In this document: in pieces, positions 12,976-60,573 of the stretch | How positions within the stretch are numbered: position 1 is the stretch's first letter | Layout: each line of letters starts with the position of its first letter | NCBI GenBank assembly: GCA_963758495.1 | Contig: CAVWVI010000001.1 | Coordinates: forward strand, 448,001 to 512,000 | Source: Oligoflexia bacterium | GTDB taxonomy: Bacteria > Bdellovibrionota > UBA1018 | DNA: 64,000 bases | Reading direction: 5' to 3' | Notes under the pieces: model-generated | What the model saw: the letters and a program-made list of their open reading frames with translations, nothing else | Database searches by the model: none | What the model was told of the DNA's origin: nothing | Translations under genes and position numbers: made by a program

Positions 12976-14535
12976 CTAAGCTCCTAAATTAAGAACAATT
13001 ACCACATAAGCTTCTGCATTATTTACGGCAATACGCCTAACCCGCAAGAGATATTCCTTTTTATATTTAACTATTGAATAAAATTGTTTTACATTACTAA
13101 TTGGGTTTTTATCGACTTCAATAATGACATCTCCCCTTGTCAGCCCCGCTAAATCAGCCGGAGTCCCTGGATTGACATCAGTCACAAGAACTCCTCGGAA
13201 TGGGGAATTTATTCCCAACTGCCTAGCAATATCGGGTGTAATATTCTCTAATGACATTCCAGTATTAATATGAGGGGGTTGTTTTTTATTTTTATCGCCT
13301 CTCGTCGAAGAGGATTCGTTACGAGCGCTAGGTCTCGGAGCAATTTTAATAGAAAATACCTTTTTAGAGCCATTTCTGGAAATTTCTAGTGGAACTGTTT
13401 GCCCCACCGAAGTAGAGCTGACCACTCCAATCAAGTCAGTAGCGGTCCGAATCGGTTTTCCATTAAAGCTCAGGATAATATCATAGGGCTTCAAGCCAAT
13501 TTGATCAGCTGGTCCACCTGGATAAACATAAGTTACAAAGGGAGCCTGTAAGGCCTTACTTACTCCTAACTTTTTTGCAATATCTGGAGTCAACTCTCCA
13601 ACTAACACTCCAACATATCCTCGAGTTACTGTACCCTTGCTTTTAAGTTGAGGGATAATGGTATTGACTAAACTCATTGGAATTGCAAATCCAATCCCCT
13701 GCGCTCTTGCCTCAATAGCGGTATTCATTCCGATGACTTCTCCATTGAGATTAATCAGCGGCCCTCCTGAGTTACCTGGATTAATAGGCGCATCCGTTTG
13801 AAGATAATTTCCCATCGGAAAATCAGGGCTCAATCTCCCTTTTGCAGAAATAATTCCATGTGTGACGGTATGACCCTGACCGAAGGGGTTCCCAACTGCC
13901 AACACGTACTCTCCCACTTCTAACTGATCAGAATTTCCGAGAGCAATAGGTACCATCTTTCGTTCTGTTTTCACCCGAATGAGGGCCACATCGAGCTCTG
14001 GATCTCTTCCGATCACGACTCCATCTGTTGGGGTTTCACCTTCTGCTTCGGTAAACTGGATTTTGATTTCATCCGCTCCTGCCACTACGTGATTATTAGT
14101 TAAAATAATTCCAGACGAGTCGATAATGAACCCTGAACCCAAAGCAATTGCATTGGGTCGCTGCTTAGGCAAAGAAGGGGGAGAGGAAGAGCCATCATCC
14201 CCTTTGGAATTATCGCCTCTGGCGCCAAAATCACGTCCAAAAAAATCTTCAAAGAATTTTCTAAATAAATCATCCGGAGTACCCTGCGTAAAAGGACTTT
14301 TTACCGTAGATAATGTAGAAATATTAACAACGGATGGAACGGTTTTTTTAGCTAAATTTACAAATATATTCGCATCAATTGGACCCTTTACCTCAGCACA
14401 TAATCCTAATGTTGTAAATCCTACTAAAACTACGCAAAGAACCGTAAGCACTGTAAGGAGTCCTGTTACGCCGGGAGTCCAAATCTTTACAGCGTAACAG
14501 GAACTACTTACGTTCAACTTTGAAACTATGTACAT
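12976..14535 (-). CDS. degP: HtrA/DegP (Do) serine protease with two PDZ domains
   Basis: LGSGFII, TNNHVV, DVALI, QTDAPINPGNSGGPL and two PDZ-like repeats. The N-terminus contains a repeat-element insertion. Confidence 0.93.
   Translation of the reverse strand: MYIVSKLNVSSSCYAVKIWTPGVTGLLTVLTVLCVVLVGFTTLGLCAEVKGPIDANIFVNLAKKTVPSVVNISTLSTVKSPFTQGTPDDLFRKFFEDFFGRDFGARGDNSKGDDGSSSPPSLPKQRPNAIALGSGFIIDSSGIILTNNHVVAGADEIKIQFTEAEGETPTDGVVIGRDPELDVALIRVKTERKMVPIALGNSDQLEVGEYVLAVGNPFGQGHTVTHGIISAKGRLSPDFPMGNYLQTDAPINPGNSGGPLINLNGEVIGMNTAIEARAQGIGFAIPMSLVNTIIPQLKSKGTVTRGYVGVLVGELTPDIAKKLGVSKALQAPFVTYVYPGGPADQIGLKPYDIILSFNGKPIRTATDLIGVVSSTSVGQTVPLEISRNGSKKVFSIKIAPRPSARNESSSTRGDKNKKQPPHINTGMSLENITPDIARQLGINSPFRGVLVTDVNPGTPADLAGLTRGDVIIEVDKNPISNVKQFYSIVKYKKEYLLRVRRIAVNNAEAYVVIVLNLGA
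14444..14511 (-). mobile_element. Copy E of the GTAAG...CTTAC palindromic element (33-bp internal deletion), in frame inside degP
   Basis: Reverse complement is GTAAGTAGTTCCT|GTTACGCTGTAAAGATTTGGACTCCCGGCGTAACAGGACTCCTTACAGTGCTTAC, collinear with copy A (60003-60103). Confidence 0.85.
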
Positions 14536-14599
14536 AAATTTATGCCCCGCTTACCCATGTCAAAATAAAGAATTTTGATAGTGCAAGTTCTGTACGCAA

Positions 14600-16324
14600 T
14601 TAAGATGAATCACTATTGTCATAAATGGCCTGCTGATCTACGATTTCTTGCATTTCTTCAGCAGAATTAACTAGATGGATTTTGTCTTTAAATTTTTCAG
14701 GTAAATTAAGCTTCTTCAACCAGCTCACAAGACCTGTATAATAGTGGCGCCCAACGAACACAAGAGGAGCCTCGGTTTCGTTCTTTGAACCGATTTTTAT
14801 TAAAAGGGCTGCAAGCTCCCTGAGGGTATTCTCACCTCCAGGCGTAAATACAAAAAGCTTTTGATTCTGAAAAAGTAGAGGAATCTGTTGTGTATACCCC
14901 TCGGTAGGCAGAGTCAGATCATGGCAATGGCGAGCAGGTGCCTCTTCTAAAGGAAGGCTCCAGGATGGGTTCTCGATCGGAATTCCGATTGAAACAACAT
15001 TCGGATTCTTCTGAATATGCTTCTGATCGTGAGTAACTTGATTTGCGACCTCTAGAAGTCCACCTCCACCACTGGTGATGATTGAAAGTTGAGCTTGAGT
15101 AATTACTTCCACAGTCCTTCGCACTAAGTCTTCATAGGTAGAATTTTTCAGAGTAGAACCGAAAACTACGGCCCGTCCTCCCTTGAAAAAGTTATCCAAT
15201 AACGTGAAAGACTTGGCAAATGTGTTTCCATTTTGAATGATTTCCTCAAATCGATCTGGATGGATTTCAGATAATATCGCCCCAAGGTCGGCGGAAGGTA
15301 TAAAAGAATCTATCCCATAAGACGCATACTCATACCAATAATGCGCATAGTTATTCAGTGAAAAAACGATCGAAGAACTTCCATTATAAACTTTTGGCTC
15401 TTGATCTGATGGATATCGAATTCCTAAGTTTTTTACACTCCTAGGACATCTCACCTCTTCAATGACTTCGACGACAGAGCCAGAATCTAGGTGGCTCACC
15501 CATTGAGAGAGTCCGGAATTTACCCATTGGTCATTCAGGTCTAGAACTTTAAACCTATTTTTTCTTTGGTTCATTCCCTTAATAAACAAACCCATGCCAG
15601 TAACTGAATCTGGAGAGATTAAAATCTCATGAATGGAAAGAATACTCATCATCCTAGTGTAAGGATTGTCAATGACGAGTGTCCCACTGGATTCATGACT
15701 GTGATTTCCACTGATTCCCAGGCGTCGTCCTTTTGGCACTGCCTTCTTGATAATGGGAGTAATGGCCGAATCTGCATCATAAACGACCAGATACCCATAA
15801 TGATAGAGCTTTGATGCTAAATCATGAATCTGTTTTTGTTCTGGCCCACTGAATTGGCTATCTCCATTCCCTATCGCCAAAAAAATAGGAAAATCGTGCT
15901 TTTTAGATGCATTTTTAGATACCACGTTATCAAAATAATACTCTGCCAATTCATCTCGAACTTTCACTGAGCTGGGTGTTAGCGATCCATTCAATAAGTT
16001 CCGAATCTCAATTCGTTTTTGCCAGATTTTCTCACGAATCAACTTTTTACTAGCCTTCTGCCTGGCTTTCCACTCTTGGAGGATTTGCTTTTGTTGCGCG
16101 GCCTCAGTCCTCATCAGTGCTTGCTTGTGCCATTTCTCTTTCCATTGAACTTTCTTATTTTCTATAAATCTCTGCCAATCATCAAGCCATCCTTGCCGAC
16201 AAGGTGCGGCGCTTTCCTGAACCTCCGAGGTATTTTCATGACCTTCGCTCCCTGCCCAAAGGGGCTGAGAAACCAAAACGAATAAAGACACAATAATGAG
16301 TTTCAATAAGAAATTTTTAAACAT
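14600..16324 (-). CDS. Secreted tandem LOG/SLOG-like protein, degenerate paralog
   Basis: Signal peptide (LWA|G). C-terminal VFGS, IITSGGGGLLEVAN, SIGIP and PGGENTLRE. Paralogous to 16352-17956. Confidence 0.7.
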   Translation of the reverse strand: MFKNFLLKLIIVSLFVLVSQPLWAGSEGHENTSEVQESAAPCRQGWLDDWQRFIENKKVQWKEKWHKQALMRTEAAQQKQILQEWKARQKASKKLIREKIWQKRIEIRNLLNGSLTPSSVKVRDELAEYYFDNVVSKNASKKHDFPIFLAIGNGDSQFSGPEQKQIHDLASKLYHYGYLVVYDADSAITPIIKKAVPKGRRLGISGNHSHESSGTLVIDNPYTRMMSILSIHEILISPDSVTGMGLFIKGMNQRKNRFKVLDLNDQWVNSGLSQWVSHLDSGSVVEVIEEVRCPRSVKNLGIRYPSDQEPKVYNGSSSIVFSLNNYAHYWYEYASYGIDSFIPSADLGAILSEIHPDRFEEIIQNGNTFAKSFTLLDNFFKGGRAVVFGSTLKNSTYEDLVRRTVEVITQAQLSIITSGGGGLLEVANQVTHDQKHIQKNPNVVSIGIPIENPSWSLPLEEAPARHCHDLTLPTEGYTQQIPLLFQNQKLFVFTPGGENTLRELAALLIKIGSKNETEAPLVFVGRHYYTGLVSWLKKLNLPEKFKDKIHLVNSAEEMQEIVDQQAIYDNSDSS

Positions 16325-16351
16325 CAGTCTTCACATCCTCTTTAACGACTT

Positions 16352-17956
16352 TCACGTCCTCTGCAACTTTATCTTTGGATTGTACAAAAATACCTTTTTA
16401 CGAAAGGATGCCGGCAGGGGTAATTTTTCAAGCCAACCGAATAAAGAACCATAATAGGCTCCACTTAGGAAGAAGATGTCTGCAGAATCATTGGACCCGA
16501 GTTCCGTTGCAAATTTGACCAGCGTGACGGCCAGTTCCTTCATCGTCCCGCTGCCCCCCGGTGCAACAAGAATGAATTTCCGATCCTGAAGTAATAACGG
16601 GATACGAAACTCATACCCAGGCACTGCTAATGTCAGGTCGTGATCACCATCAGCCGTAAAAAGCTCGCTGAAAATCCGATGAGAACCCCCTAAGGGAATT
16701 CCTATCGACAACGCACCTTCTTGACAGGCGACACGATTAGCGGTTTGCATAAATCCTCCCGCCCCCCCCGTTACGATGGGATTACTCTCTTTTGCAAGCT
16801 TGCGAACCGCTGCTTGGACTAAGGGTTCATAATGATAACTTCCACTCCCTGAACCAAAAAGTACCGCCCCACCAGGGATTCTCTGCCCAGTTTTCGGATG
16901 AAGCGTGAGAATATTTGATTTCCTGGAATAAGACTCTGCCCTCTCATGGATCTCAAAAATATCTTTCGATTCGAATTGATTGAGGAAATCCAAGTATTCT
17001 ACTTGTGGTATTTTTTTCAAACTAGCGCCAAACGAAGATGAAAAATGAGAATATGAAAAATAAAAAATACTCTTAATTAAATCTTCGACGGAACTATAAG
17101 TTTTAGGTTCCTTGTAGGTTGGATAGCTAATCCCTAGATTTACTGGAGACTCTGCGACACTCGAGGACCAATTGGATAAGCCATGCTTTGGCCATTGATT
17201 CAAGGGATCAAATACAGAGAACTTATTTTTAAAATTTCCATATCCTTCGATTAATAAACCTAACCCAAGCACTGAGTCGGGGGAAATCACAATTGACTCA
17301 ATGGTGAGCAGTTGATTCATTCGAATATAAGGATTGGAGATCACGAGTACGTCATCGCTCATGGCCTCCCAAAGCCCACTGATCCCGAGTCGATAACCCC
17401 GAGGGACCGCCTCTCGGATCAGACTAGCCGCTTGTGAATCTGCATCGTAAAGAACACGACTCCCTTTTTCGTAAATTCCACGAGCTAACTCAGATACTTT
17501 GGAAGCCACTTCTGGGCTTAAGGGATTCATCTTATTACCCAAAGCGAGAAAAACGGTTCGTTCCGCAGAAATGGCCAGCTTTTTGGAGAACCAATAGGCT
17601 GATATTTCATCTCGGACCGTCTGAGAATAGGAGTTGAGAGGCTGCTGATGTATCGCACCGATGAGCTGATTTTTGGCTGTTTCCAAGGAGCGGACCTCTT
17701 GCACTTGCCCAACAGACTCACTTGCTTTCATTTCTGAATTCAACACAGGTCTTTCTTCTTTGTCTCTCTTCGTTTCATAATGATAGTACTGCGCCTCGGG
17801 ACGAGAGTCGAATATACGTTCGCGCCATATACTGACCTTGTTTTTCCATTGCGATGGCTTTTCATAAACTTCGGGTAAGTCATCTGGACTCGCCGACGAG
17901 ATATTTGGAATACTCAGCGCAATGAAAAAAACTCCAAGTTTAAAGTTCAACATCAT
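16352..17956 (-). CDS. Secreted tandem LOG/SLOG-like nucleotide phosphoribohydrolase
   Basis: Signal peptide (SSA|S); VLFGSG, IVTGGAGGFMQTANR, SIGIP, EFRIP and PGGSGTMKE, which matches the LOG PGGxGTxxE motif. Confidence 0.78.
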   Translation of the reverse strand: MMLNFKLGVFFIALSIPNISSASPDDLPEVYEKPSQWKNKVSIWRERIFDSRPEAQYYHYETKRDKEERPVLNSEMKASESVGQVQEVRSLETAKNQLIGAIHQQPLNSYSQTVRDEISAYWFSKKLAISAERTVFLALGNKMNPLSPEVASKVSELARGIYEKGSRVLYDADSQAASLIREAVPRGYRLGISGLWEAMSDDVLVISNPYIRMNQLLTIESIVISPDSVLGLGLLIEGYGNFKNKFSVFDPLNQWPKHGLSNWSSSVAESPVNLGISYPTYKEPKTYSSVEDLIKSIFYFSYSHFSSSFGASLKKIPQVEYLDFLNQFESKDIFEIHERAESYSRKSNILTLHPKTGQRIPGGAVLFGSGSGSYHYEPLVQAAVRKLAKESNPIVTGGAGGFMQTANRVACQEGALSIGIPLGGSHRIFSELFTADGDHDLTLAVPGYEFRIPLLLQDRKFILVAPGGSGTMKELAVTLVKFATELGSNDSADIFFLSGAYYGSLFGWLEKLPLPASFRKKVFLYNPKIKLQRT

Positions 17957-18018
17957 AATCTACCTACTCTTTGAAATATTTTTTTGAGAAATATCTCTTT
18001 GAAAAATATCAATCCACA

Positions 18019-19935
18019 TTAAGAAGATTTTCTGAAAAAGGAAAACCAGGACTGCTTCGGATGCTTCTTTTTGAATGCCACTCTTGCGTGCCCATATCGA
18101 AGTGATTCCTGAGAATGAGTCAGGTTCTTATGGGAAGGCTTCCGTAACGCCTTGTATTCTGCTCGAGTCGTAAGCTGACCGAGGGCTCGCTCGGCAATCC
18201 TATAGTGGGACAAACTGTTCTGCTTAATCGAAGAAATCAGTCGATTCATGTCATGAATATCGGGGTGTAATTCAAAATAGAAATCCAAAACCGAGTCTAA
18301 GATTAATTTTCTTTTTTCTTCCGGAAAAATATTCAACAATCTTATTAATGAAGCTTTATCCAGGTTAAATTTCAGAATAAGATCTGAATTCGCTACCAGG
18401 TAATCCCGTTGCCCACTGGATAGAGAGTTTCGAACTAACTTCAAGAGTCGATTCATTTCATCATCAGATTGAACTAAAGAAAGCGCTAATTTGAATACAG
18501 TTGGGTGCTTCGATAATTTGGCCTTAAAACTGTTTGAAAAAGAAGACGGGTCCATTACTTTAAGCACGGCATCAAAGTCCATCTTTTCGTTAGGACTCAT
18601 CATTCTTGCCAAATAAACAGCTTCAAACTCTTTCTTATTCAAATTAATTAAACCGAATTGTTCGTTCATTTCGAGCAAATCATCCAAAGTCGTAAGATCT
18701 GCCTTCGCCATCAACAGATTCACCTGGATGGTTAGATCCTTTAATAGTTGAGTCTGTCGATGAGAGGTCAATCGTGTGTTCTTTAGCTCCAGTATAAAAT
18801 GACGCATACCTTCCGAAGTGTGCACGTCTTCCAGTAATTTTTTCAATAGGAAATACTTATTTTCTGCAGATTCCCGCATGGTTGGAAACGAATATCCTAA
18901 TTTGGACGCTTCGTTCTTCACATTTATAAAAAACTGCGGTGATTGAGCGGCTCGCACCACATAAGCTTGAAAGCGGATCGTCGCCTCACGCACTTCCTCT
19001 AAGGCAAGTGAACCCACTTGCGCTAAAACTCGTCCCTGACCGGTTTGGATCACTGGCCCATAGGAACCATGCCAGGACCCAGTCCAATGGGTGTATCCAG
19101 CCTCATTGGTTCCAATGAATTCCTGAGTCACATTGCCATCCGTATAGGTAAAAATAGTGTAATGATCAAAATCGATGAAGTTCTGGTCCTGATCTTTTTC
19201 GATTAACTTCTGCGCCTGTAAAGCATCCCTATGGGGGATTGCCGTAGTCGAGACTCGGAGACCGATAAAATTAAAATACGGCAGCAAATCAGAGGAAGTC
19301 CAAGACAAGGATGGCCATTTATGACCCTGAGCCAAAGCTCCATAAACAGCATTCAGAAGATAACGCCCCTGACGCCCTCCTCCTCTTGAAACTGCATCAA
19401 TCAGAATAAAAGGATGCATTCCTTCTTTCAGTTCGAGACCCTGAGACTCAAGCAGACCCATGGCAAGTTCACCTGTAAGCCCGTCGAGTGTACCTCGACT
19501 CATACCGATCCGTGCGACTCGATCTGTCTGACCGATTGAACGATAAAAGGCCTCAAACACATCGGCCAAAATGGCCATATCACGTCCGATAAAAGCCCAG
19601 GTTGCACCTGGAAAAGCTTTTTCAAAGGACGCAATCATTTGCGGTGCCCCTTGGATCAGAACAGTGTACCAGATTGGAAAATTATTTTGGAGATCATTCC
19701 TCGGCTTCTGGCTGTCTTTGGGTAAACTTGTTTCACTCTGCAGTTCGGGTAGCGGAGTACTGTTTTTCAAATACTGCTCTATCTGCTGAACCGATGGGCG
19801 CTGAACCTGATTGACTAGCTTCAAAAGATCCAACCTGGATGCGGCCAGTCCTTCAGCAGTCATGAGAGTAGGTAATAGAAAACTGATTAAAAATACCTGA
19901 ACCTTGATGGATTGAACTCCCTGAGAAAACTTCAT
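18019..19935 (-). CDS. Secreted hypothetical protein, paralog of 19932-22316, with a PRTase-like N-domain and helical C-terminus
   Basis: Start at ATG 19935 gives an ATGA overlap with the upstream gene. Signal peptide. Shared motifs PGAxWAxxGRD, FxEAFY, hhhhD and a C-terminal TRxxYxALxxPS. Confidence 0.7.
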   Translation of the reverse strand: MKFSQGVQSIKVQVFLISFLLPTLMTAEGLAASRLDLLKLVNQVQRPSVQQIEQYLKNSTPLPELQSETSLPKDSQKPRNDLQNNFPIWYTVLIQGAPQMIASFEKAFPGATWAFIGRDMAILADVFEAFYRSIGQTDRVARIGMSRGTLDGLTGELAMGLLESQGLELKEGMHPFILIDAVSRGGGRQGRYLLNAVYGALAQGHKWPSLSWTSSDLLPYFNFIGLRVSTTAIPHRDALQAQKLIEKDQDQNFIDFDHYTIFTYTDGNVTQEFIGTNEAGYTHWTGSWHGSYGPVIQTGQGRVLAQVGSLALEEVREATIRFQAYVVRAAQSPQFFINVKNEASKLGYSFPTMRESAENKYFLLKKLLEDVHTSEGMRHFILELKNTRLTSHRQTQLLKDLTIQVNLLMAKADLTTLDDLLEMNEQFGLINLNKKEFEAVYLARMMSPNEKMDFDAVLKVMDPSSFSNSFKAKLSKHPTVFKLALSLVQSDDEMNRLLKLVRNSLSSGQRDYLVANSDLILKFNLDKASLIRLLNIFPEEKRKLILDSVLDFYFELHPDIHDMNRLISSIKQNSLSHYRIAERALGQLTTRAEYKALRKPSHKNLTHSQESLRYGHARVAFKKKHPKQSWFSFFRKSS

Positions 19936-22316: not shown

Positions 22317-22394
22317 AATACTTTATCTAAATTCCAGCGACCTTATTTTGAGAGACAGTTTTTAAAAGCCTAAAACCGAGTGGTTTATTTTATC

Positions 22395-23534: not shown

Positions 23535-23723
23535 TCGATTGAAACAAGAACTTTGTATCTGCGTATCAGGGGTAGATTCTATCATCTCTGAACAACTTTC
23601 TCTAAAAAGATTTAAAACCAGACTAACCATAAACTGTCGCACTGCGTATACCAAAAAATGCAAGACCGCCAAAATAAATTTAACAGGATTGACAATACTT
23701 AGATTTCTGCGAAGGCTAAAGTA

Positions 23724-24911: not shown

Positions 24912-24942
24912 TACTACTACGAAAGTTTTAACGGAGTAGTCA

Positions 24943-37461: not shown

Positions 37462-37562
37462 GTAAGCGAGGGAAGGAGTCTTATTGTGCTTGGAACCCAA
37501 ATCTTTACGGCGCAATAAGACTCCTTCCCTCGCTTATCAACAACCCTAAAGGAATTACTTAC
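37462..37562 (-). mobile_element. Copy B (full length, 101 bp) of the GTAAG...CTTAC palindromic element
   Basis: 78/101 identical without gaps to copy A (hand count). Perfect 24-bp stem TAAGCGAGGGAAGGAGTCTTATTG / CAATAAGACTCCTTCCCTCGCTTA. Lies between convergent genes. Confidence 0.85.
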
Positions 37563-39506: not shown

Positions 39507-39549
39507 ATAAGCAAGCCCTAAAGGAAGTAGTTCTAAAGGAGCTGCTTAC
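39507..39549 (-). repeat. Mini copy F (43 bp) of the GTAAG element between divergent promoters
   Basis: Reverse complement GTAAGCAGCTCCTTTAG-AACTACTTCCTTTAGGG-CTTGCTTAT keeps both ends and duplicates the TCCTTTAG motif. Confidence 0.6.
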
Positions 39550-40693: not shown

Positions 40694-40753
40694 ATAAGTA
40701 GTTCCTACAGGGTTGTTGACAAGCACTGCAACAGGACCTCTTGCAGTGCTTGC
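40694..40753 (+). mobile_element. Copy C (internally deleted) of the GTAAG element
   Basis: ATAAGTAGTTCCTACAGGGTTGTTGACAAGCACTGCAA|CAGGACCTCTTGCAGTGCTTGC; flanks AATGGAAT / TGTGGAAT. Confidence 0.8.
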
Positions 40754-49236: not shown

Positions 49237-50240
49237 ATGCTGACTTCCCTTTATTTCCGATCCGAGCATCCACCATTGCGGCAAGTGTTGACACCCTCTT
49301 TCTGAGTATGTTTGGATTAGAAGTTTTCATATTAATTTTAATTTTTTGCGCTATTCTTTACTTTTGCATTAAATATCATTTCCATACTGTCACCGATCGG
49401 AGTCGGAGAAACTTCAGCCAAAGTTCCATTGAAATTACTTGGACTTTAGTTCCACTCGTGCTGCTTATTATTTTATTTTTCTGGTCTGGCCGTATTTATT
49501 TAAAAATGTACACTCCGCCAAAAAATTCTATGGAAATATTCGTACTGGGTAAACAGTGGATGTGGAAATTCTTGCAACCTAATGGACGGCGAGAAGCGGC
49601 TGAATTACATGTCCCGTTGGGTATACCTATTAAATTAACAATGACTTCGGAAGATGTCATTCACAGTCTTTTTGTTCCGGCTTTTCGGATTAAACAAGAC
49701 GTTCTTCCAGGACGATACACTTCGGTCTGGTTTCAAGCCAGCGTTGCAGGAGAATACCATCTCTTTTGTACGCAATACTGCGGCACCCAACACGCAGAAA
49801 TGGGCGCAGCCAAAATTATTGTTATGAAACCTGAAAAATACGAACAGTGGCTCAGCTCAGGGGACACTGCAGGCAACAGCTTCTCAAAAGTAGTATCACT
49901 GACTTCGGAAGGACGAGATCTATTCCAAAAATTAAGCTGTAATACCTGTCATTTTGATAATGTTGGAATCCGCGCACCTCGATTGGAAGGTCTCTACGGA
50001 AGCATCGTCACTCTAGAGGGAGGTAAAAACATCATTGCTGACGATACCTACATTCGTGAATCTATTCTTGAGCCTAATGTAAAAATTGTCCAGGGATTTC
50101 TACCCGTCATGCCCAGCTATAAAAACCTTGTGAATGAAGAACAACTTCTTGCGCTGACTGCTTATATTAAATCCATGCAATTCAGTGAAGGCCATAGTCG
50201 AAAGCTTCTTCTAGGAATACCGGCAAAGGAGTCACCATGA
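49233..50240 (+). CDS. coxB: Cytochrome c oxidase subunit II with fused cytochrome c (caa3 type)
   Basis: EITWT, QWMW, DVIHS, CuA motif [12 protein letters not shown] and C-terminal CNTCH. Confidence 0.95.
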
Positions 50241-51829: not shown

Positions 51830-52502
51830 CTTCGAAAGTACTCAAATTGCCAAGCCTTTTGAAAAGATTCATGTCGCGGAGCAGTTTGAAAATGCTGAGC
51901 AACAGAAATCTGTGGCTCAAATAGGCATGTGGACTTTCCTCTCAACAGAAGTTCTCTTTTTTGGCGGGCTTTTTGCGGTGTATATTATATACAGAGTCAT
52001 CTATCCTGAGGCTTTTGCAGAAGCGAGCCGTCATACCAAGCTCATCATTGGGGCAATTAATACAGCAGTCCTTCTCTCCAGTAGTCTCACTATGGCACTA
52101 GCCGTACACTACTCAAAGCTCGGCAAAAAACACCCTCTCGTGGTGTACTTAGTCTGTACCGCACTTTTTGGTGTTGTATTTATGGGGCTTAAGGGAATTG
52201 AATATTATCAAGATTATCAAGATCACGCTGTACCCTATTTCAATTATGCTCTTAAAATAGCCGATCCTGCGAGAGGAGAATTATTCTTTATTATCTATTT
52301 TGTCATGACCTTGATTCACGCTCTGCATCTCACAATTGGAATTGGACTTATCAGTTTTATAGCATTCCAAGCTTTGAAAAATAAATACTCGCCGAGTTAT
52401 CACACGCCGGTTGAGCTTACTGGGCTATATTGGCACTTTGTCGACATCATTTGGGTCTTTCTTTTTCCCCTACTCTATCTGATTGACAGGAGTCCATCAT
52501 GA
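51822..52502 (+). CDS. coxC: Cytochrome c oxidase subunit III
   Basis: [37 protein letters not shown]. Confidence 0.95.
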
Positions 52503-52798
52503 AGGAACCCAAATTTGGAGTCAAAACTTTATTGGGAACTTACGTCCTATTAATGTTTTTATTGGTACTGACCATTGCAGTAGCCTTCATAAACCTGGGC
52601 CCATTCAATACTCCGATTAATATAGGAATTGCAGTTGTAAAAACAGTTTTTATTGCGCTCTTTTTTATGGAGTTGCTCATCGCTCGGGGCCTAGTGCGTA
52701 TCGCAGCCGGGGCAGGAGTCTACTGGCTAGCTATACTGATTGGGCTGAGTTTGATGGATTATCTAACTCGAAATTGGGCTTCTTTACCGGGTAAGTGA
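52499..52798 (+). CDS. Cytochrome c oxidase subunit IV (CtaF-like)
   Basis: Three TM helices, IAVVK..FFMEL, DYLTR. Confidence 0.85.
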   Translation: MKEPKFGVKTLLGTYVLLMFLLVLTIAVAFINLGPFNTPINIGIAVVKTVFIALFFMELLIARGLVRIAAGAGVYWLAILIGLSLMDYLTRNWASLPGK

Positions 52799-52802
52799 CT
52801 CA

Positions 52803-52872
52803 TCTGGCATTAACTCTCTGGTATTAACTCTCTGGTATTAACTCTCTGGCATTAACCCTCTGGTATTAACTC
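52803..52872. repeat. Tandem repeat, 5 x 14 bp (TCTGGYATTAACYC), spanning the argH stop codon
   Basis: Units start at 52803, 52817, 52831, 52845 and 52859. Confidence 0.95.
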
Positions 52873-54231
52873 TCGGGCTCGATTTATTTGCCGATCCACG
52901 GAATCAGGTCCAGTACCTCCCTCAGAAACTCGTGCTCGAACTGAAGCCTGTGGAGAGAGAACAGTCATGGCATCTGACTCAATTAATAAAGAGAACTCTC
53001 GAAGTTCCGATAGACTCAAACCCTCAAGAGTAGTGCCACTACAAATGCATGAGCGTACAATCTTGCCTACGATTTCGTGCGCTGCTCTAAATGTAAGACC
53101 TTTCCGAACCAAATAATCAGCCAGATCGGTAGCGGTAGAAAAATCACCTCGCATGGCTTCACTCATTTTTAAAGAATTGAATTTTGCTGTTTCCAACATA
53201 AGTCCCATCAAACGAATGCTGGATCGCACTGTATCAAGACCTTCAAAAAGAAATGTTTTATCCTCTTGAAGGTCGCGGTTATAAGAAAGCGGAAGAGCCT
53301 TCAACATCATCTGGGCACCTGTTAAAGCTCCAGCAACTCTCCCCGTCTTACCTCGAATGAGTTCCGCAACATCCGGATTTTTTTTCTGGGGCATAATACT
53401 GCTCCCTGTGGTCACACTGTCATCCAGTTCCACAAATCCGAACTCAGGAGAACTCCACAGAACCAGCTCTTCTGCAAATCGAGAAAGGTGAAGCATCATT
53501 AAAGAAGCAGCAGCAAGAAATTCAATGACAAAATCACGATCAGAAACGGCATCCAAACTATTCTCAGTCACCGAATCAAATCCCAATTCTTTGCGAGTCA
53601 TCTCTCTATCAATTAAAAAAGGTGTCCCTGCCAGAGCAGCAGAGCCCAGAGGAAGAAAACTAGTCCGTTTTCTGCAATCACTTAATCTTTCATAATCACG
53701 CTGAAGCATCCAAAAATACGCTAAAAGATGATGTGAAAAGCTCACAGGCTGAGCATGCTGAAAATGAGTCAATCCAGGAAGTAAAGTCTCGCGATAAATT
53801 TCCGCTGCATTCACGAGCCACAACTGAAGCGCACGAACCTCCTTTTGCAATTGATCAATTTGATCTTTTAAATAATACCGAGTTGCAGTCGCTACTTGAT
53901 CGTTTCGACTTCGAGCCGTATGAAGCTTACCTGCCACCAACCCAATCTTTTCCGATAAAAGCCGCTCAATCTCAGAGTGAATGTCTTCAGCATCTGGACG
54001 AAATTGAACTTTCCCTGAAGCAATCTCTGAACGTACATCCTCTAAACCCGCTATGATTTGATGACTGTCCCGTGCATCGAGAATTCCACATTTTCCTAGC
54101 ATCCGAGCATGAGCCATGCTTCCAGCCAAATCCGCTTCCCACAGTCTGGAATCCACTGCGAGAGAAGATGTAAATTCTTCAACAGCCTTAGCTGTCTGTT
54201 CTTTGAATCGACCGCCCCAAAGTTTGTTCAT
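52852..54231 (-). CDS. argH: Argininosuccinate lyase
   Basis: MNKLWGGRF, EDIH, HTARSRNDQ, TGSSIMPQKKNPD, YNRDLQEDK. Confidence 0.97.
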   Translation of the reverse strand: MNKLWGGRFKEQTAKAVEEFTSSLAVDSRLWEADLAGSMAHARMLGKCGILDARDSHQIIAGLEDVRSEIASGKVQFRPDAEDIHSEIERLLSEKIGLVAGKLHTARSRNDQVATATRYYLKDQIDQLQKEVRALQLWLVNAAEIYRETLLPGLTHFQHAQPVSFSHHLLAYFWMLQRDYERLSDCRKRTSFLPLGSAALAGTPFLIDREMTRKELGFDSVTENSLDAVSDRDFVIEFLAAASLMMLHLSRFAEELVLWSSPEFGFVELDDSVTTGSSIMPQKKNPDVAELIRGKTGRVAGALTGAQMMLKALPLSYNRDLQEDKTFLFEGLDTVRSSIRLMGLMLETAKFNSLKMSEAMRGDFSTATDLADYLVRKGLTFRAAHEIVGKIVRSCICSGTTLEGLSLSELREFSLLIESDAMTVLSPQASVRARVSEGGTGPDSVDRQINRARELIPEG

Positions 54232-54235
54232 TTCT

Positions 54236-55429
54236 TCACTGATTCCTTTGTTTGAGATGATAATACATACGCGCTTGCAAACCAAAATTCTTGACGGTTC
54301 CCGTACTTTCCCTCTGATCAAAAGTTGTCGTATCAAAAGATGCTAAATCTTCAGAGTAGAGAGCCCACTGACTAGATCGACCGATCACTTGAAGAGCACC
54401 TTTATAAAGACGAAGAGAAACCCAGCCCGTAACTCTTTCCTGTGTCTTATGAATGAATGCTTCAAGATCTTCTTTAAATGGATCAAACCAGAGCCCCTCA
54501 TAGGCGAGCTTACTCCACTCAGCGTCTACCAGACTTTTAAAACGAAGTTCCTCACGAGTTAATACCAGTGCTTCAAGTGCACGATGCGCAGTCAGGATCA
54601 AAGTAGAACCGGGACATTCATAATTTTCTCTCACTTTCAATCCCAGCATACGGTCTTCCATAATATCAATTCGACCTACTCCGTGTTCACCTGCAATTCG
54701 GTTTGCCTGAGAAATAAGAGTTGCCGGTGATGACCGCTCACCATTGATTGCGACTGGCACTCCATTTTCAAAGCTGAGCTTAATCTCTGTGGGCTTATCC
54801 GGGGAAAGCTGTGAATCTCTCGTCCATTCAAAGATCTCACTCGGAGGTGCATAAGAGGGCTCCTCTAATCGTCCACCTTCGATAGAGCGACCCCAAAGAT
54901 TTTCATCGACACTCCAGATTTTTTCTAAGCTCTGCTTAATGGGTATACCCTTGCTCATTGCGTAATCAATCTCCCAGCTCCGAGTCATGTTTCGCTCCCG
55001 GACAGGCGCATGAATCGTTGCTCCAGGCATCAACGCCCGAATTGCAAATTCAATTCGAAACTGATCATTGCCCTTTCCAGTACAACCATGTGCAAATGCA
55101 TTTGCACCGATTCGAGTAGCTACATCGACCGCCTTTGCAGCGATCAATGGGCGGGCAATAGAAGTGCTGATAGGATATCCCTCATAGTTTCCGTTCGCAC
55201 GAACCGAAGCGAAACAATAGTCACGAGCAAATTCTTCTTTTGCATCCACAGTATAATGCTCAGTACCCATTGCCTGGGCTTTCTCAGCGGCCTCACGAAT
55301 ATCATGAGAAGGCTGACCCACATCAATGGTGACCGTGACAATACGACTATATCCATACTCTTCACGCATTAGGGGAATGCAAACAGATGTATCCAAACCT
55401 CCAGAATAAATCAGAACTATCGTTTTCAT
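54236..55429 (-). CDS. argG: Argininosuccinate synthase
   Basis: YSGGLDTS, ARPLIA, HGCTGKGNDQ, SVDENLWGRSIE. Confidence 0.97.
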   Translation of the reverse strand: MKTIVLIYSGGLDTSVCIPLMREEYGYSRIVTVTIDVGQPSHDIREAAEKAQAMGTEHYTVDAKEEFARDYCFASVRANGNYEGYPISTSIARPLIAAKAVDVATRIGANAFAHGCTGKGNDQFRIEFAIRALMPGATIHAPVRERNMTRSWEIDYAMSKGIPIKQSLEKIWSVDENLWGRSIEGGRLEEPSYAPPSEIFEWTRDSQLSPDKPTEIKLSFENGVPVAINGERSSPATLISQANRIAGEHGVGRIDIMEDRMLGLKVRENYECPGSTLILTAHRALEALVLTREELRFKSLVDAEWSKLAYEGLWFDPFKEDLEAFIHKTQERVTGWVSLRLYKGALQVIGRSSQWALYSEDLASFDTTTFDQRESTGTVKNFGLQARMYYHLKQRNQ

Positions 55430-55445
55430 TATTTATTTTGCTCCT

Positions 55446-55550
55446 TACCTTTGCATATATATGCAAAGGTATAATTAAATCAATGTATTTTTGGGTTGAC
55501 TTCAGCGTAAATATGCATATTAATGCATTAGAGATGCATATTTATGAACA
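55446..55550. promoter_or_regulatory. Three ArgR-type ARG boxes in the divergent argG/argC promoter
   Basis: TGCAT-N4-ATGCA cores at 55452 (inside a perfect 26-bp palindrome), 55514 and 55535 (the last ends ATGAA). The last two are 21 bp apart, the classic tandem spacing. TTGACT -35 at 55496. Confidence 0.85.
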
Positions 55551-56625
55551 CAAAAAACAACCAGCTGCCGAGGCAAAAATACCTATCGCCATTATTGGCG
55601 CACGCGGTTACTCGGGTCTTGAGCTTGTCAGAATTTTATTAAAACATCCTGGAGTCAAAATTGAAGCCTGTGTTGCAACTGATTCTGATTTTTGTCTGTC
55701 CCATTGGCTTCCTGAACAAACAGCAGAGACAATCCCTGTAACCTCAATCCATCATCTAGAACAAGTCTTAAATAAAGTTCATACCGTATTCCTAGCTACT
55801 CCGGCTGAAGCCTCTATTGAACTTGCTCCCAGAATTCTAAAATCCGGCGTAAGTGTAATCGACCTAAGCGGAGCATTTCGCCTTGAAGCTGAAAATGCAC
55901 AACAGTATTATGGAATTCGAGGTGATGCTCTTTCGATTTTGCCACACGCTGAATACGGATTGATTCCTTGGATTGGCCCCGCCAAAAATCGAGAGAATCA
56001 ACCGAGCCTCATTGCAAACCCAGGTTGCTATGCCACTTCCATTCTCATGGCTATCCTTCCTTTGCTTAAAGAAAACATCATCAATACCGCGTCACTTGTG
56101 ATTGATTCGAAATCAGGCACGACGGGTGCAGGTCGCAAAGCGACTGAAAATCTTTTATTTAGTGAGGTTGATGGTGAATGCATCCCCTATAGAATTGGAA
56201 CCCATCAGCATTTTCCTGAAATCGTGCAATATGCATCTCACTTTGCTTCCATTGATATTGACCCTCTGTTTTCCACTCACTTATTAGGGGCCCGTAGAGG
56301 AATTATTTCTGGAATTTATGCTCGAACTCTCAACAACATGTCAATCCATAGAATAGAAACAGCTTACTCTGCATTCTACTCAAATTATCCTTTAGTCCGA
56401 TGGGGAAGAATTAACCCAAATCAGCCAAGAGCATTATCTTTGAAGAGAGTCGTAGGAAGCGCAAGAACTGAAATCCAATTTGAACTCAAAGGCAACCAAC
56501 TTTACATTTTTTCTCTCATTGATAATCTAATTAAAGGCGCTGCCGGTCAAGCCATTGAGAATTTCAATCGAATCTATGACTTTCCAATTACAACATCACT
56601 ACTTGAACTCGAGGGCGTATTATGA
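55534..56625 (+). CDS. argC: N-acetyl-gamma-glutamyl-phosphate reductase
   Basis: IIGARGYSG, IDLSGAFRL, ANPGCYAT, SGTTGAGR, DNLIKGAAGQA. Start position uncertain. Confidence 0.95.
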   Translation: MHIYEHKKQPAAEAKIPIAIIGARGYSGLELVRILLKHPGVKIEACVATDSDFCLSHWLPEQTAETIPVTSIHHLEQVLNKVHTVFLATPAEASIELAPRILKSGVSVIDLSGAFRLEAENAQQYYGIRGDALSILPHAEYGLIPWIGPAKNRENQPSLIANPGCYATSILMAILPLLKENIINTASLVIDSKSGTTGAGRKATENLLFSEVDGECIPYRIGTHQHFPEIVQYASHFASIDIDPLFSTHLLGARRGIISGIYARTLNNMSIHRIETAYSAFYSNYPLVRWGRINPNQPRALSLKRVVGSARTEIQFELKGNQLYIFSLIDNLIKGAAGQAIENFNRIYDFPITTSLLELEGVL

Positions 56626-57821
56626 CTCCTGGACCTGGAATAGCAAGAACACCACTCCCTAAGGGCTTTTCAGCGGCAGCAATTCATTGTGGAGTTCGTA
56701 AGTATCGCCCGGATTTAGGAATGATTATTTCTGAACAAGACTGCGTTGCCGCTGGTACCTTTACTCAAAACGAATGCCAAGCGGCCTCAGTTCTTTACTC
56801 AAAGGGAATACTACCCAGCTCACATATTCGCTCTGTAATAACCAATAGCGGACAAGCAAATGCTGCCACCGGAAAACTCGGGAAAATCAATAACTGGAAA
56901 ATGGCTCTTGCGGCAGCTCGAACGATTGGATGCTTACCTCATCAAGTGCTCACAGCATCCACGGGAGTCATAGGCGTTCAGATGGAAATAGAAAAGATTG
57001 AAAAGGGAATTCTCCATCTTCCCGATAGAATCGCATACAACTCTGAATTATTCGCTCTTGCCATTATGACGACAGACCTAGTTCCAAAGACTGTCACGAC
57101 CACTGTATTACTCAGCGAAGGAGAAGTCAGAATCACTGGAATCTGCAAAGGTTCTGGAATGATCCATCCAAACATGGCAACGATGTTAGGTTACCTTCTC
57201 ACTGATGCTCAGGTGCCACTTGAAATGGCCCAGCCTTTACTCTCAGAAGCAACTCAGTTGAGTTTCAATATGATCAGTGTTGATGGAGATACCTCTACAA
57301 ATGATTCAGTTTTTTTATTAGCCAATGGCATGAGTGGAGTTACCCTCAGCACCCAAGAGGATATCAAAAAGTTTCAAAAAGCCCTCAACGAAGTAGCGCA
57401 ACTCCTTGCTCAGGCAATTGCAAGAGATGGAGAGGGAGCAACAAAATTGATCGAAGTACAACTCACGGGTGCTCCTTCCGACGAACTCGCCCGTAGAGCT
57501 GCACGTGGATTAATACTCAGTCCATTAATCAAGGCAGCAATTCATGGAGAAGATCCAAATTGGGGGCGAATCCTTGCACGATTAGGTGCGGAACAGATTC
57601 CCTCGACTTGTCTGGAGTCCTTAAATTTAGCGATTCAAGAAGTTCGTGTATTTGAAGAAGGACAACCTATTAATTTTGATCGAAGTATCGTTCGAAATCT
57701 TCTTAAAGACGATACCGTCCGAATTCAAATTGATCTCAATTCAGGATTATTTAATGCTAAGGCTTGGGGTTGTGATTTGTCGAAAAGATACGTGGAAATC
57801 AACGCAGAGTATTCAACGTGA
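56622..57821 (+). CDS. argJ: Bifunctional ornithine acetyltransferase/N-acetylglutamate synthase
   Basis: NSGQANA, STGVIG, IMTTD, KGSGMIHPNMATML, DGDTSTND, DGEGATK. Confidence 0.97.
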   Translation: MTPGPGIARTPLPKGFSAAAIHCGVRKYRPDLGMIISEQDCVAAGTFTQNECQAASVLYSKGILPSSHIRSVITNSGQANAATGKLGKINNWKMALAAARTIGCLPHQVLTASTGVIGVQMEIEKIEKGILHLPDRIAYNSELFALAIMTTDLVPKTVTTTVLLSEGEVRITGICKGSGMIHPNMATMLGYLLTDAQVPLEMAQPLLSEATQLSFNMISVDGDTSTNDSVFLLANGMSGVTLSTQEDIKKFQKALNEVAQLLAQAIARDGEGATKLIEVQLTGAPSDELARRAARGLILSPLIKAAIHGEDPNWGRILARLGAEQIPSTCLESLNLAIQEVRVFEEGQPINFDRSIVRNLLKDDTVRIQIDLNSGLFNAKAWGCDLSKRYVEINAEYST

Positions 57822-58594
57822 ATAAAAGAATCCTTATCAAACTCGGTGGAGCTGCCCTTGAAAACTCAGACTGGGTCACTTCTATTTGCAAAGAACTTGT
57901 TCGTATCCGTTCTATGGGAATTTCTGTTGTCGTCGTTCACGGCGGAGGACCTGCAATCAATCAGGAGCTTAAGCGTCGGGGGATTCAATGGCAATTCATC
58001 GACGGCCAACGAGTCACCACACCTGATATGATGGAAGTCATTGAAATGGTCTTATGTGGTTCAGTCAATCGCAAAATTGTTCGTATTTTGAACGGGATGG
58101 GAATGCCCGCTATTGGATTTTCTGGTATTGACGGCAAAACTCTCTTATGCAAACAAGCGGATCCACGGTTAGGTCAAGTAGGTACGATCGAGCAAGTCGA
58201 TCCAAAAACGATTCTCTCTATCCTTGAAAGAGACAAAAAATCTGAAAAGGGAATCATTCCAATCATTGCTCCTATTGGAATCGGGAAAAACGGTGAATCT
58301 TACAATATTAATGCGGACTGGGCAGCAACCTGGATTGCCCAGGCTCTCAAAATAAAGACTCTGATTTTTCTGACTGATCAAGATGGCATACTCGATACGA
58401 ATAGAAAGCCCATTTCAAATGTTGATTTAAATGGACTGCAAAAGCTCATTAAAACAGAAACCGTGACTGGAGGAATGCTGACCAAGACCCGCGCCGTCCT
58501 TCACTCACTCAAAAATAATACAAAGGAAGTTTATATATTAAACTCCCACAGACCTTTTCCTTGGAAAGGCCAAGGAACATTTTGTCGGCCTTAA
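57818..58594 (+). CDS. argB: Acetylglutamate kinase
   Basis: IKLGG, VVHGGGP, GQRVT, YNINAD, TGGM; GTGA overlap with argJ. Confidence 0.95.
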   Translation: MNKRILIKLGGAALENSDWVTSICKELVRIRSMGISVVVVHGGGPAINQELKRRGIQWQFIDGQRVTTPDMMEVIEMVLCGSVNRKIVRILNGMGMPAIGFSGIDGKTLLCKQADPRLGQVGTIEQVDPKTILSILERDKKSEKGIIPIIAPIGIGKNGESYNINADWAATWIAQALKIKTLIFLTDQDGILDTNRKPISNVDLNGLQKLIKTETVTGGMLTKTRAVLHSLKNNTKEVYILNSHRPFPWKGQGTFCRP

Positions 58595-58637
58595 ATAAAA
58601 ACTCCATTATCTTTCCGTCATCCTTAGGGAAAAAGTT

Positions 58638-59570
58638 ATGATCAAATTCAACACTAGCCATCTACTTACTGGAGAAGAACTCAATTTAGATGAATTATTG
58701 GACCTTTTAGATTGCGCAGAGAAGCTCAATCATGAAAGACACCAAGGAATGATCCGAACGGATCTTGTCGGAAAAACACTCACCCTTTTATTCGAAAAAC
58801 CATCTTTAAGAACACGCGTCAGTTTTACAGTCGCCATGAGAGAATTAGGAGGAGATATCGTAGAATGCCTCGCCTCCTCCCGCAAGCATGAAGAACCCGA
58901 AGATGTAGTACAAGTCCTAGGTGGTTATACTCATGCCATTATGTTACGAACCCACGAACATTCTAATTTAATACGTATGGCAAATAAGTCATCTATTCCT
59001 GTGATCAATGGTCTATCAGACTCTCATCACCCGTGTCAGATATTTGCAGACCTTCTTACATTAAAACAGCATTTTGAGAAACTAGAAGGCTTGACAGTAA
59101 CCTATGTCGGAGATGGAAATAATATTTTACATAGCCTTATGCTTTTGATGCCCATTCTAGGTATTCATCTCCGCTACTCATGTCCAAATAATTACATGCC
59201 CGACCCCTTGATTGTCAAAAACGCTATAGATCGGATTAAACTTATAAAGGTGAAAGGCTCCATCTCTTCGTTTTCTGATCCAAGGAGCGCTGTTCAAGGT
59301 GCAATAGCAGTTTATACAGATGTTTGGACCAGCATGGGCTTTGAAGAAGAACAGACGGACCGGGAAGAAGCTTTCAAAAACTACCAAGTAAACGAAGAAC
59401 TACTTTCTCACGCGCAGCAGGGCGCATTGGTCATGCATTGTATGCCCATGATTAAAGGCAAAGAAATTTCAGCAACCCTCGCTGAGCACCCTAAAGCCGT
59501 CTTTTTTAAACAGAGTGAGAATAGACTTCATGTCCAAAAAGCACTTCTTTTAGCTCTATTAAAGCATTAA
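58638..59570 (+). CDS. argF: Ornithine carbamoyltransferase
   Basis: FEKPSLRT, HPCQ, GDGNN, DVWTSMG, HCMP, ENRLH. Confidence 0.94.
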   Translation: MIKFNTSHLLTGEELNLDELLDLLDCAEKLNHERHQGMIRTDLVGKTLTLLFEKPSLRTRVSFTVAMRELGGDIVECLASSRKHEEPEDVVQVLGGYTHAIMLRTHEHSNLIRMANKSSIPVINGLSDSHHPCQIFADLLTLKQHFEKLEGLTVTYVGDGNNILHSLMLLMPILGIHLRYSCPNNYMPDPLIVKNAIDRIKLIKVKGSISSFSDPRSAVQGAIAVYTDVWTSMGFEEEQTDREEAFKNYQVNEELLSHAQQGALVMHCMPMIKGKEISATLAEHPKAVFFKQSENRLHVQKALLLALLKH

Positions 59571-59794
59571 CCTTTTTCTTGATTTTCGTCTTCTCGCTTA
59601 ATAAGAATTGATCTTCGCTTTTGCAAAAGACCCTTAACTCTCTCTAAAGATTCATAAGCCTTAGTCAATTGCCCAACCTCTTCCAATGGAGCATCAGGTC
59701 GGGCTTTAAGACTCTCTATAACCGAATCCGTCAAAAAAAAAGCCGTCCCAAGAGCGCCTGCCAAGTCGTGAAGAAATTCTCTTTCATCGTTCAT
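59567..59794 (-). CDS. Small protein with an H-box-like (HisKA/DHp) helix
   Basis: REFLHDLAGALG followed by a second helix; AGAAAGG RBS-like sequence upstream. Confidence 0.6.
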   Translation of the reverse strand: MNDEREFLHDLAGALGTAFFLTDSVIESLKARPDAPLEEVGQLTKAYESLERVKGLLQKRRSILIKREDENQEKG

Positions 59795-60002
59795 TGAAAA
59801 ACCTTTCTTATACAAACATAGCACATCGCATTAATAACTTACTGTTTTTTTAATTTACAGGAAGGTATATGAGCTTTCTGCCCGAATCTTTAAACCAAAG
59901 TTTCTTAAGAAAAATCCTAGCAAGCCATTTGATTTGAGTCAAAGCAAGATTCCTACTTTCATAGTTGCTTAAATGAAATCTCACCTTATGCTTTTAATTA
60001 TT

Positions 60003-60103
60003 GTAAGTAGCTCCTTTAAGACTGTTGACAAGTATTGTAAGGAGTCCTGTTGCGCCGTAAAGATTTGGATTCCCGGCGCAACAGGACTCCTTACAGTGCT
60101 TAC
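60003..60103 (+). mobile_element. Copy A (full length, 101 bp) of the GTAAG...CTTAC palindromic element, with a 7-bp flanking direct repeat
   Basis: 28-bp stem 60030-60057 / 60074-60101 with two G-T pairs. AATTATT at 59996-60002 and 60104-60110. Confidence 0.87.
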
Positions 60104-60105
60104 AA

Positions 60106-60474
60106 TTATTGATCGGTCTTTAAAAAAATCGCCTGAATTTTTGAAATAATTTCTTTAATCAAGAATGGCTTTTGAAGAAATCCAGCAATGGTATAACCAT
60201 CAAATTCTTTATGATTTTCTAAAGAATCTCCACTACAGAGTATAAAAGGGATCTTTATATTTTTTGAGTTAAGATACATAAATAAGTCTGCTCCAGATCC
60301 CTGTTTCATATTGTAATCACAAATAATACCTGCAATGTCTTTTGTATTCTCCAGGACTGCTATCGCTTCAGCCACTGATCCAGCAACCACTGTGTCTATA
60401 TGTAATTTATTTTGAATAAGGGTAGACATTAGTTCCCTCAGGTCTGGTTCATCATCAACAATTAAAAGTTTCAT
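60106..60474 (-). CDS. Single-domain response regulator
   Basis: LLIVDDE, IICDYNM, FILCSG, LQKPF. Confidence 0.9.
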   Translation of the reverse strand: MKLLIVDDEPDLRELMSTLIQNKLHIDTVVAGSVAEAIAVLENTKDIAGIICDYNMKQGSGADLFMYLNSKNIKIPFILCSGDSLENHKEFDGYTIAGFLQKPFLIKEIISKIQAIFLKTDQ

Positions 60475-60533
60475 TATCCAATTATAAACTCCAAGTATTA
60501 TTAAGTCCTAGTTGATTATTTAATATCTATACC

Positions 60534-60573
60534 GTAAGCAGATCCTTTAGGGAGAGCAGCCCACTCTCCCTCC
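60534..60573 (+). repeat. 5'-end fragment D of the GTAAG element joined to a short hairpin
   Basis: GTAAGCAGATCCTTTAGGG, then AGGGAGAG-N7-CTCTCCCT next to the HAD gene stop codon. Confidence 0.55.

Follow-up and report, generated by a model that had tools for sequence, protein, structure and literature searches.

A probable superfamily of hairpin-bearing miniature transposable elements in one Bdellovibrionota family: arms that appear to be copied as DNA, and one interior with two types of end

We describe a short mobile repeat present as six copies or fragments in 64,000 nt of the genome of an Oligoflexia bacterium (contig CAVWVI010000001.1, positions 448,001 to 512,000; this whole stretch is called the window), where it had been noticed in a model's reading of the letters alone (the sequence-only reading). 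Its copies are dispersed through the genome, carry target duplications, nest and decay by deletion; the two arms of the internal hairpin change together by Watson-Crick pairs only, the loop is sometimes inverted, and a single interior occurs with two types of end. The reading that we favour, and consider moderately probable as a whole, is that of a superfamily of MITEs (inverted-repeat transposable elements of miniature size) of approximately 100 bp in one family of Bdellovibrionota, moved in trans, with arms copied as DNA and with a switch of transposase partner in its history. The element family is apparently undescribed. We found no paper on it, or on one interior with two end types, in the open-access literature; two MITE overviews (PMC10969869 and bioRxiv 2024.01.18.576219) contained no relevant passage, PMC8024623 and PMC3469429 had nothing to add, and the supplementary MITE lists of the preprint could include the family.

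Results

The elements appear to share a frame consisting of a left end of 25-27 nt, a stem of 28-29 bp whose left arm would be an internal inverted copy of the right end, and a 16 nt loop. In copy A of the window (Table 1), positions 28-55 pair with 72-99 to give a 28 bp stem and a 16 nt loop (z ~ -9 against 200 shuffles), and the first 27 nt and last 2 nt are unpaired. The hairpin spans positions 28-99 only, so the earlier description of a palindrome of about 101 bp from end to end does not hold.

The element type found in the window, here M1, is abundant. Across the whole host assembly (3.66 Mb in five contigs, and placed in Bdellovibrionota by its protein relatives), nhmmer returned 84 matches at E<=0.01, against one decoy match at E 0.39, and the 19 nt left end was matched with up to three mismatches 97 times, against once in reversed DNA. 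The merged catalogue holds 114 left ends, 68 of them with a right end, almost all intergenic. Both termini carry GTAA, and the two ends agree at 16 of 25 positions in two blocks, forming a bipartite terminal inverted repeat (TIR) whose inner block is the 6 nt motif that follows the left box. Tabulation of the flanks revealed an identity peak at 8 bp (0.60 versus 0.33 permuted) and a second one at 7 bp (27 copies); target duplications were recognisable in 26 of the 68 two-ended copies, eleven spanning 8 bp and fifteen spanning 7 bp, where 0.6 were expected. One M1 copy is inserted in the loop of another. Twenty-seven two-ended copies are short, including recurrent forms of 24 bp (eight copies) and 36 bp (eight copies), and 46 of the 114 are left ends alone; the deletion breakpoints lie at microhomologies of at least 2 nt in 20 of the 27 short copies, compared with 17% at random. 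M1 is a MITE, being short, non-coding and dispersed, with TIRs and target duplications; its dispersal, duplications and nesting are what a MITE leaves when a DDE transposase moves it and hairpin deletion later erodes it. The proposals that the repeat is a non-autonomous mobile element and that it abounds genome-wide were therefore both supported.

In the full element, frame 1 stays open whichever strand is read. Eight of 100 matches lie inside open reading frames (ORFs) of at least 120 aa, all near the ORF starts; copy E, the only one of these inspected, is convincingly coding.

Searches of databases and sequence collections were largely empty. Rfam gave nothing above the gathering threshold in the window, and seven element loci produced only sub-threshold hairpin matches. 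There was no match in plasmid and phage collections, three single matches, near chance expectation, in unrelated metagenome-assembled genomes of a genome collection, none in either of two metagenome scans, and none and one in two viral scans, the one lacking a stem.

A second MITE, of 165 bp, occurs at G000:C4:456169-456333 and in approximately 17 more places, with TIRs of about 25 bp and 7-8 bp duplications. It sits in the loop of two M1 copies, with 8 bp duplications, and its TIR shares eight bases with the inner stem. Its candidate parents are elements of 1.37 kb whose ends are similar and whose transposase is weakly IS1-like (G000:C1:176305 and C3:114220).

Covariation between the arms was pronounced. 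Among 32 aligned copies, 70 cells were altered on both arms against 13.0 in shuffles (none of 500 as high), a control inflated by the relatedness of the copies; together with the nhmmer counts this rules out chance. The covariation that had been read from the window is real, except that one of the pairs quoted for copy A contains a mismatch. In 29 core copies all 48 double changes were Watson-Crick, where 8.8 double changes were expected under independent arms, and 35 of the 48 fell in the outer ten pairs; transversions made up 20 of the 48 double changes versus 15 of 73 single-arm changes. Single-arm changes yielding G-U numbered 28 on the element strand and 30 on the other, and on the likely transcribed strand (16 copies) seven were wobble-compatible and 13 incompatible (p=0.26; small numbers). 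The loop is inverted in two of 37 near-full-length copies. Single changes become more numerous as the unpaired parts diverge (rho 0.42, p 0.025, n=29), and paired changes do not (rho -0.01, p 0.98, n=29). This points to paired variants having been fixed mostly in mobile master copies, prior to insertion.

Because every double change is Watson-Crick, G-U pairs are not favoured, loops are inverted and paired changes do not track age, the covariation, whilst real, looks DNA-made rather than RNA-selected. In the literature, template switching is described as a process that homogenises arms and inverts spacers (PMC8604942, PMC5941160). It is plausible that pairing is needed at the DNA level in the mobile lineage; of the idea that the structure is under selection as RNA or single-stranded DNA, the RNA half found no support and the DNA half stays credible. 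Sequence is also unevenly conserved within M1, in copies selected on full length: divergence is 4.3% in the loop (20/464), 8.5% in the left box (46/544; p 0.01) and approximately 10% in the arms (169/1623; p 2e-5).

The M1 sequence itself is, by BLAST and pattern matching, specific to the host genome. BLAST of copy A found nothing in 40 relatives, and the left-end pattern had at most two matches, like the control, in each of 126 genomes of the class. Covariance models, in contrast, retrieved relatives in six and seven (union eight) of 74 other genomes of the same family, from four other genera, and in none of 52 genomes from other families of the class; in a phylum sample, relatives appeared in one of nine genomes within the family and in none of 141 outside. 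As 24-32 candidates were scored per genome, copy numbers are lower bounds and weak relatives may be missed. Six other genomes gave matches to the loop alone, with no stem around it. The supposed lineage specificity therefore applies to the sequence, whereas structure and loop recur in four other genera.

The relatives are of two types. Type M2 occurs in G081 and G082, two genomes of another genus, with 50 and 13 left-end matches; its left ends often start with GAAG and only in part with GTAA, and 7-8 bp duplications flank five of 18 copies against 0.12 expected. Type H occurs in five genera, with 16-29 scored matches in each of G008, G081 and G083, fewer in G069-G071 and G112, and four copies in the host genome, one with an insertion in the loop. 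It has TAG...CTA ends and a TA duplication in a CTAG context: among 31 copies from G081 and the host genome, TA stands at the left in 19, at the right in 15 and on both sides in 10, with no excess of 7 or 8 bp repeats.

A covariance model built from the M-type copies of the host alone retrieved type H. Three H copies were colinear with M1 from the left terminus, with arm, loop and right end on the same positions; 12-13 of 16 loop bases agreed, as did 8-11 of 11 in the left box (shifted by 6 nt), but only 12-14 of 28 in the arm, and each arm paired with its own partner at 22-26 of 28 positions. Over 72 H copies, picked by a loop-rewarding model and anchored on the loop, identity to M1 was 0.75-0.94 in the loop and 0.21-0.50 in the arm. 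Old H copies keep loop and stem, with left ends down to background identity.

Several H loci deserve separate mention. In two old copies in G008 (L226 and L349) the stems, read by eye, extend to approximately 38 bp by taking in new sequence, in keeping with arm copying, with the loop kept and the left end unrecognisable. L207:1501-1616 (G071) and L208:1501-2830 (G070) have flanks that are 95% identical, but their H hairpins, which follow one and the same gene, resemble each other at only 74%; a 1.1 kb gene follows the hairpin in G070 and is lacking in G071, a gene gain or loss beside an H copy. L194 (G081) combines an H copy and an M2 left-end fragment in one intergenic stretch before a gene that in G008 (L350) also has an H copy upstream, the two insertions being at most candidate orthologues.

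The ends of the two groups resemble those of different insertion sequence (IS) families. IS66 elements of this bacterial family begin with GTAA, and three carry 8 bp duplications (8/8, 8/8 and 7/8); published IS66 ends likewise begin with GTAA (PMC12888890). The host's IS630-like element lies within CTAG in three of three copies, and RUP elements have been tied to IS630 through their TA targets (PMC2229807). M ends look IS66-like and H ends IS630-like, a likeness of ends and not of family membership, which is unsupported because no coding element with matching ends turned up in the transposase-bearing loci, the genome-wide scan or the collections searched. A parent search over loci with PF03050, PF13358, PF01609, PF00665 and PF01797, together with a genome-wide scan for GTAA-ended elements with duplications, gave no match. 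The proposed relation to IS66 accordingly survives as a similarity of GTAA termini, with parentage unproven: the host's own IS66 has only the first four bases in common with M1 ends. The IS66 loci taken from relatives shared no M TIRs, in fragmented assemblies from which absence does not follow, and ten PF13358 loci in three of five genomes had other ends or none, with no H-like TIR. In G081 an H copy lies 85 bp behind the tnpC gene of an IS66; as it has TA flanks of its own, we read it as an insertion and not as part of that IS. Integron attC and IS91/IS200-type readings were discarded on the target duplications, given the properties of those families.

The genome is rich in IS families, with multi-copy ISCR/IS91-like, IS110 and IS630-like elements (G000:C3:191618, C3:331288 and C1:85068). 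A 1720 bp IS66-family element has two copies (G000:C3:100870-102589 and C4:964964-966684) and a short relic of joined ends (C4:40200), all three sharing the same two flanks, once in inverted order; a third copy has an ordinary 8 bp duplication. A CRISPR-like repeat, which we take to be of type I-C, is among the commonest 16-mers, with approximately 28 copies in G000.

Surviving M1 copies sit at gene ends, as judged from rough ORF-based gene calls. Between convergent genes, which account for 17% of intergenic bases, lie 17 of 40 full copies (p 2e-4), and three lie between divergent genes; in tandem gene pairs 16 of 20 copies run against the direction of transcription (p 0.012). Of the 40, 33 have the right end turned towards a stop codon. 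Among 98 right ends, a set that includes approximately four inner-arm echoes, one duplicated locus and approximately four matches that are doubtful, 12 are placed precisely 2 nt from a stop codon and 14 provide the stop themselves, both positions being in one frame. For genes of at least 150 aa, nine of 37 ends within 0-60 nt are at +2, compared with 6% expected from the target profile (p 3e-4). Left ends have a weaker pattern (five at +2, six at +1 and four at -4 of 114), and H copies are near stops but without such a spike. Seventeen genes of at least 150 aa end in the element's own TAA. Twelve of these have Pfam hits; in seven the C-terminal domain is complete 0-22 residues before the end, and one may be truncated. 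Survival bias may account for these positions as well as targeting. A preferred orientation next to stop codons is also a feature of ERICs.

Within the window (Table 1), the two 101 bp copies A and B can be aligned gap-free at 78/101, just as first reported. The duplication noticed around A is present, at 7 bp and not about 8 bp. Copies E and C match the family consensus at 63/68 and 53/60, and had rightly been taken for internal deletions at short repeats: both are simple deletions at 4 bp microhomologies. Copy B ends 10 and 13 nt from the stops of the flanking kinase and FtsH genes. Copy E lengthens the signal-peptide region of the DegP/HtrA gene in frame, by approximately 23 codons, and is probably translated within the predicted signal peptide, since the gene has no start codon downstream of it; its target duplication is unrecognisable. 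For copy D the assignment stands over the first 19 nt, the only part scored, whose match class has 77 genome matches and none in reversed decoys; beyond them no family resemblance is visible by eye. Copy F, upstream of what is likely the start of an AI-2E transporter gene, is a rearranged remnant of the family with a right-end tail; its left-box copies match at 15/19 and 15/16, and the 15/19 class alone is weak (130 genome matches versus 19 decoy). A promoter and terminator scan around A gave no excess over shuffles. A possible IHF site in the loop scored 7/9 against an IHF consensus, and sites scoring equally high elsewhere in the element deprive it of value as evidence.

Table 1. Element copies and their parts in the 64 kb window
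Feature	Position	Strand	Description
Copy A	60003-60103	+	Full-length, type M1; 94/101 to family consensus
A, left end	60003-60029	+	Unpaired; GTAAG terminus, box at positions 9-19 also present in type H, inner motif of the TIR at positions 20-25
A, left arm	60030-60057	+	Left arm of 28 bp stem; internal inverted copy of right end
A, loop	60058-60073	+	16 nt; most conserved part of the family, common to several genera
A, right arm and right terminus	60074-60103	+	
A, target duplication, left copy	59996-60002	no strand	7 bp
A, target duplication, right copy	60104-60110	no strand	7 bp; contains stop codon of response-regulator gene 60106-60474 (-), 2 nt off the element end
Copy B	37462-37562	-	Full length; six paired changes in the stem; flanked by convergent genes for a kinase and FtsH
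Copy E	14444-14511	-	68 bp; 33 bp internal deletion; in frame within DegP/HtrA gene (12976-14535, -), predicted signal-peptide region
Copy C	40694-40753	+	60 bp; 41 bp internal deletion that took the loop; same 60 bp form found again elsewhere in the genome
Copy F	39507-39549	-	Rearranged remnant: two left-box copies and right-end tail; weakest of the six
Copy D	60534-60552	+	Left-end fragment, 17/19; just behind stop of HAD hydrolase gene 60574-61317 (-)

Discussion

Our data are consistent with a model in which DDE transposases, the enzymes themselves being inferred, move the element in trans. M1 and M2, with G(T/A)A-type ends and 7-8 bp duplications, would come closest to IS66-family ends, and type H, with its TAG...CTA ends and TA duplication within CTAG, would resemble the IS630-family MITEs. 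Because M and H share an interior but differ in ends and duplication type, one lineage probably switched transposase partner whilst the interior was kept, in one direction or the other. The arms would change jointly by arm-to-arm DNA copying through template switching, not by stepwise RNA compensation, and paired variants were apparently fixed mostly in still-mobile master copies, so that pairing and loop probably matter for mobilisation. After insertion, decay would proceed mostly through deletion of the hairpin at microhomologies. The position of surviving insertions at gene 3' ends, hairpin end toward the stop, may reflect a T/A-rich target preference combined with survival bias, and perhaps real targeting.

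Several observations weigh against this model. None of 114 transposase-bearing loci (323 kb, partly overlapping) has M1, M2 or H ends, MITE copies aside, so the suggestion that an IS66-like or other transposase with the same termini might be found was disappointed. The right termini of M2 vary (three forms), with positions 2-3 equal to the inner arm in 11 of 18 copies, which is odd for a DDE end read by sequence, and in type H the TA might belong to palindromic ends. No duplication is recognisable in 42 of the 68 two-ended M1 copies, duplication quality is uncorrelated with copy divergence, and 7 bp duplications, a length that the IS66 copies here do not show, are as common as 8 bp ones. The empty orthologous sites that had been hoped for were not found: two cross-species attempts gave no alignable site, the comparison genomes all being from other genera. 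The age test has n=29 and shared variants that are non-independent (10 of 24 paired variants recur), and the conservation of the loop between genera stems in part from the model search and from anchoring on the loop.

Some of these points would suit a single enzyme that reads a folded single strand by its fixed stem length and loop, as proposed for REPINs, and that moves all three types, the IS-like termini being secondary. No part is better conserved than the loop; the 27+28+16+28 geometry persists despite the 6 nt shift of the left box; M2 termini follow the inner arm; no parent IS was found; and copies are biased between strands (57 versus 27, counted against GC skew). A hairpin has likewise been proposed as the REPIN intermediate, its 5' tail being unpaired and complementary to the 3' end (PMC3116915). 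We nevertheless think such an enzyme unlikely. Two duplication types would need two cutting geometries, and the sole Y1 (HUH) gene of the genome (PF01797) has no element cluster, one left-end fragment lying approximately 1.4 kb away. HUH elements are not known to make such target duplications, nor REPs and REPINs to make 7-8 bp ones.

Selection of the fold as RNA in host transcripts, as a 3' stabiliser or an RNase III or RNase E site of the kind seen in ERIC and Correia elements, with classical compensation, seems less likely again. It would account for the gene 3'-end position with its excess of convergent and opposing placements, and for old H copies that retain loop and stem beside left ends at background identity; orientation-dependent effects on mRNA are reported for ERIC (PMC2229807). 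It is at odds with the lack of G-U bias on either strand, the complete absence of non-Watson-Crick double changes (0/48), the inverted loops, and the many copies without a hairpin (the 27 short two-ended and 46 left-only of 114).

The least probable alternative is that these are unrelated ordinary MITEs, with stems kept by template switching alone (which can keep inverted repeats perfect; PMC5941160), a loop that reflects low mutability and search bias, and a hairpin captured by M and H without any partner switch: H matches were indeed picked by a loop-rewarding model and M-H arm identity is only 43-50% (three copies), but M and H have loop, left box, arm length and end-to-end register in common, the loop is conserved also inside M1, in copies chosen on full length, and paired changes do not accumulate with age.

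MITEs are usually seen as end-remnants of one IS that die with it; our results suggest that here a lineage may outlive its helper by changing partner. A bolder version, which we put forward tentatively and rather doubt, is that of an ancient hairpin module with a 16 nt loop that some host or transposase factor reads, which survived across genera by partner change (from IS630-type to IS66-type ends or the other way), with the inner arm rewriting the right end and with insertion actively aimed at stop codons, so that genes are left intact or borrow the element's TAA. If true, it would provide a natural case of MITE helper switching and of structure-assisted DDE transposition targeted to gene ends. 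The clustering at stop codons and the 17 genes that use the element's TAA make target choice testable. Our findings are also a warning for covariation screens, as strong scores here accompany signatures of DNA copying and not of RNA selection.

Long hairpins, compensatory changes and locations at gene ends are already known among MITEs, from ERIC, Correia, bcr1 and REPINs (PMC2229807, PMC3184786, PMC3116915). ERIC/IRU, RUP and Correia, which are IS630-type MITEs, are likewise intergenic elements of approximately 100-130 bp with a long stem-loop, nesting and an orientation that matters to neighbouring genes, and they have TA at their ends, as in type H (PMC2229807). They pair the 5' end with the 3' end, however, whereas the hairpin here is internal, between the right end and its inner copy, and the interior described here also carries GTAA ends and 7-8 bp duplications; a match in sequence would not be expected. 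With the IS66 family, including the single-ORF ISBst12-like elements (PMC12888890), the M types have in common GTAA termini, imperfect TIRs of approximately 25 bp and, in part, 8 bp duplications, but our element is non-coding, half of its duplications are 7 bp, and no IS66 was found that shares more than the first few bases.

The bcr1 repeat of the Bacillus cereus group is also mobile, has direct repeats and preserves a long pairing through compensatory changes; it differs in its 155 bp length, 5 bp repeats and cruciform, and its pairing has been read as acting at the RNA level, whereas our tests point to DNA copying (PMC3184786). REPINs, which are associated with RAYT, also keep hairpin length and pairing and not stem sequence, with compensatory changes common, but they keep their ends and vary the middle, whilst the element described here keeps its loop, makes target duplications and has no RAYT cluster (PMC3116915). 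Finally, an open frame runs through the Rickettsia RPE and Yersinia YPAL elements, the latter also with internal inverted repeats; here the frame is open on both strands and one copy lies in frame in a signal-peptide region. The duplications of RPE and YPAL range from 3 to 26 bp, whereas those of our element are fixed at 7-8 bp or TA and its copies are almost all intergenic (PMC2229807).

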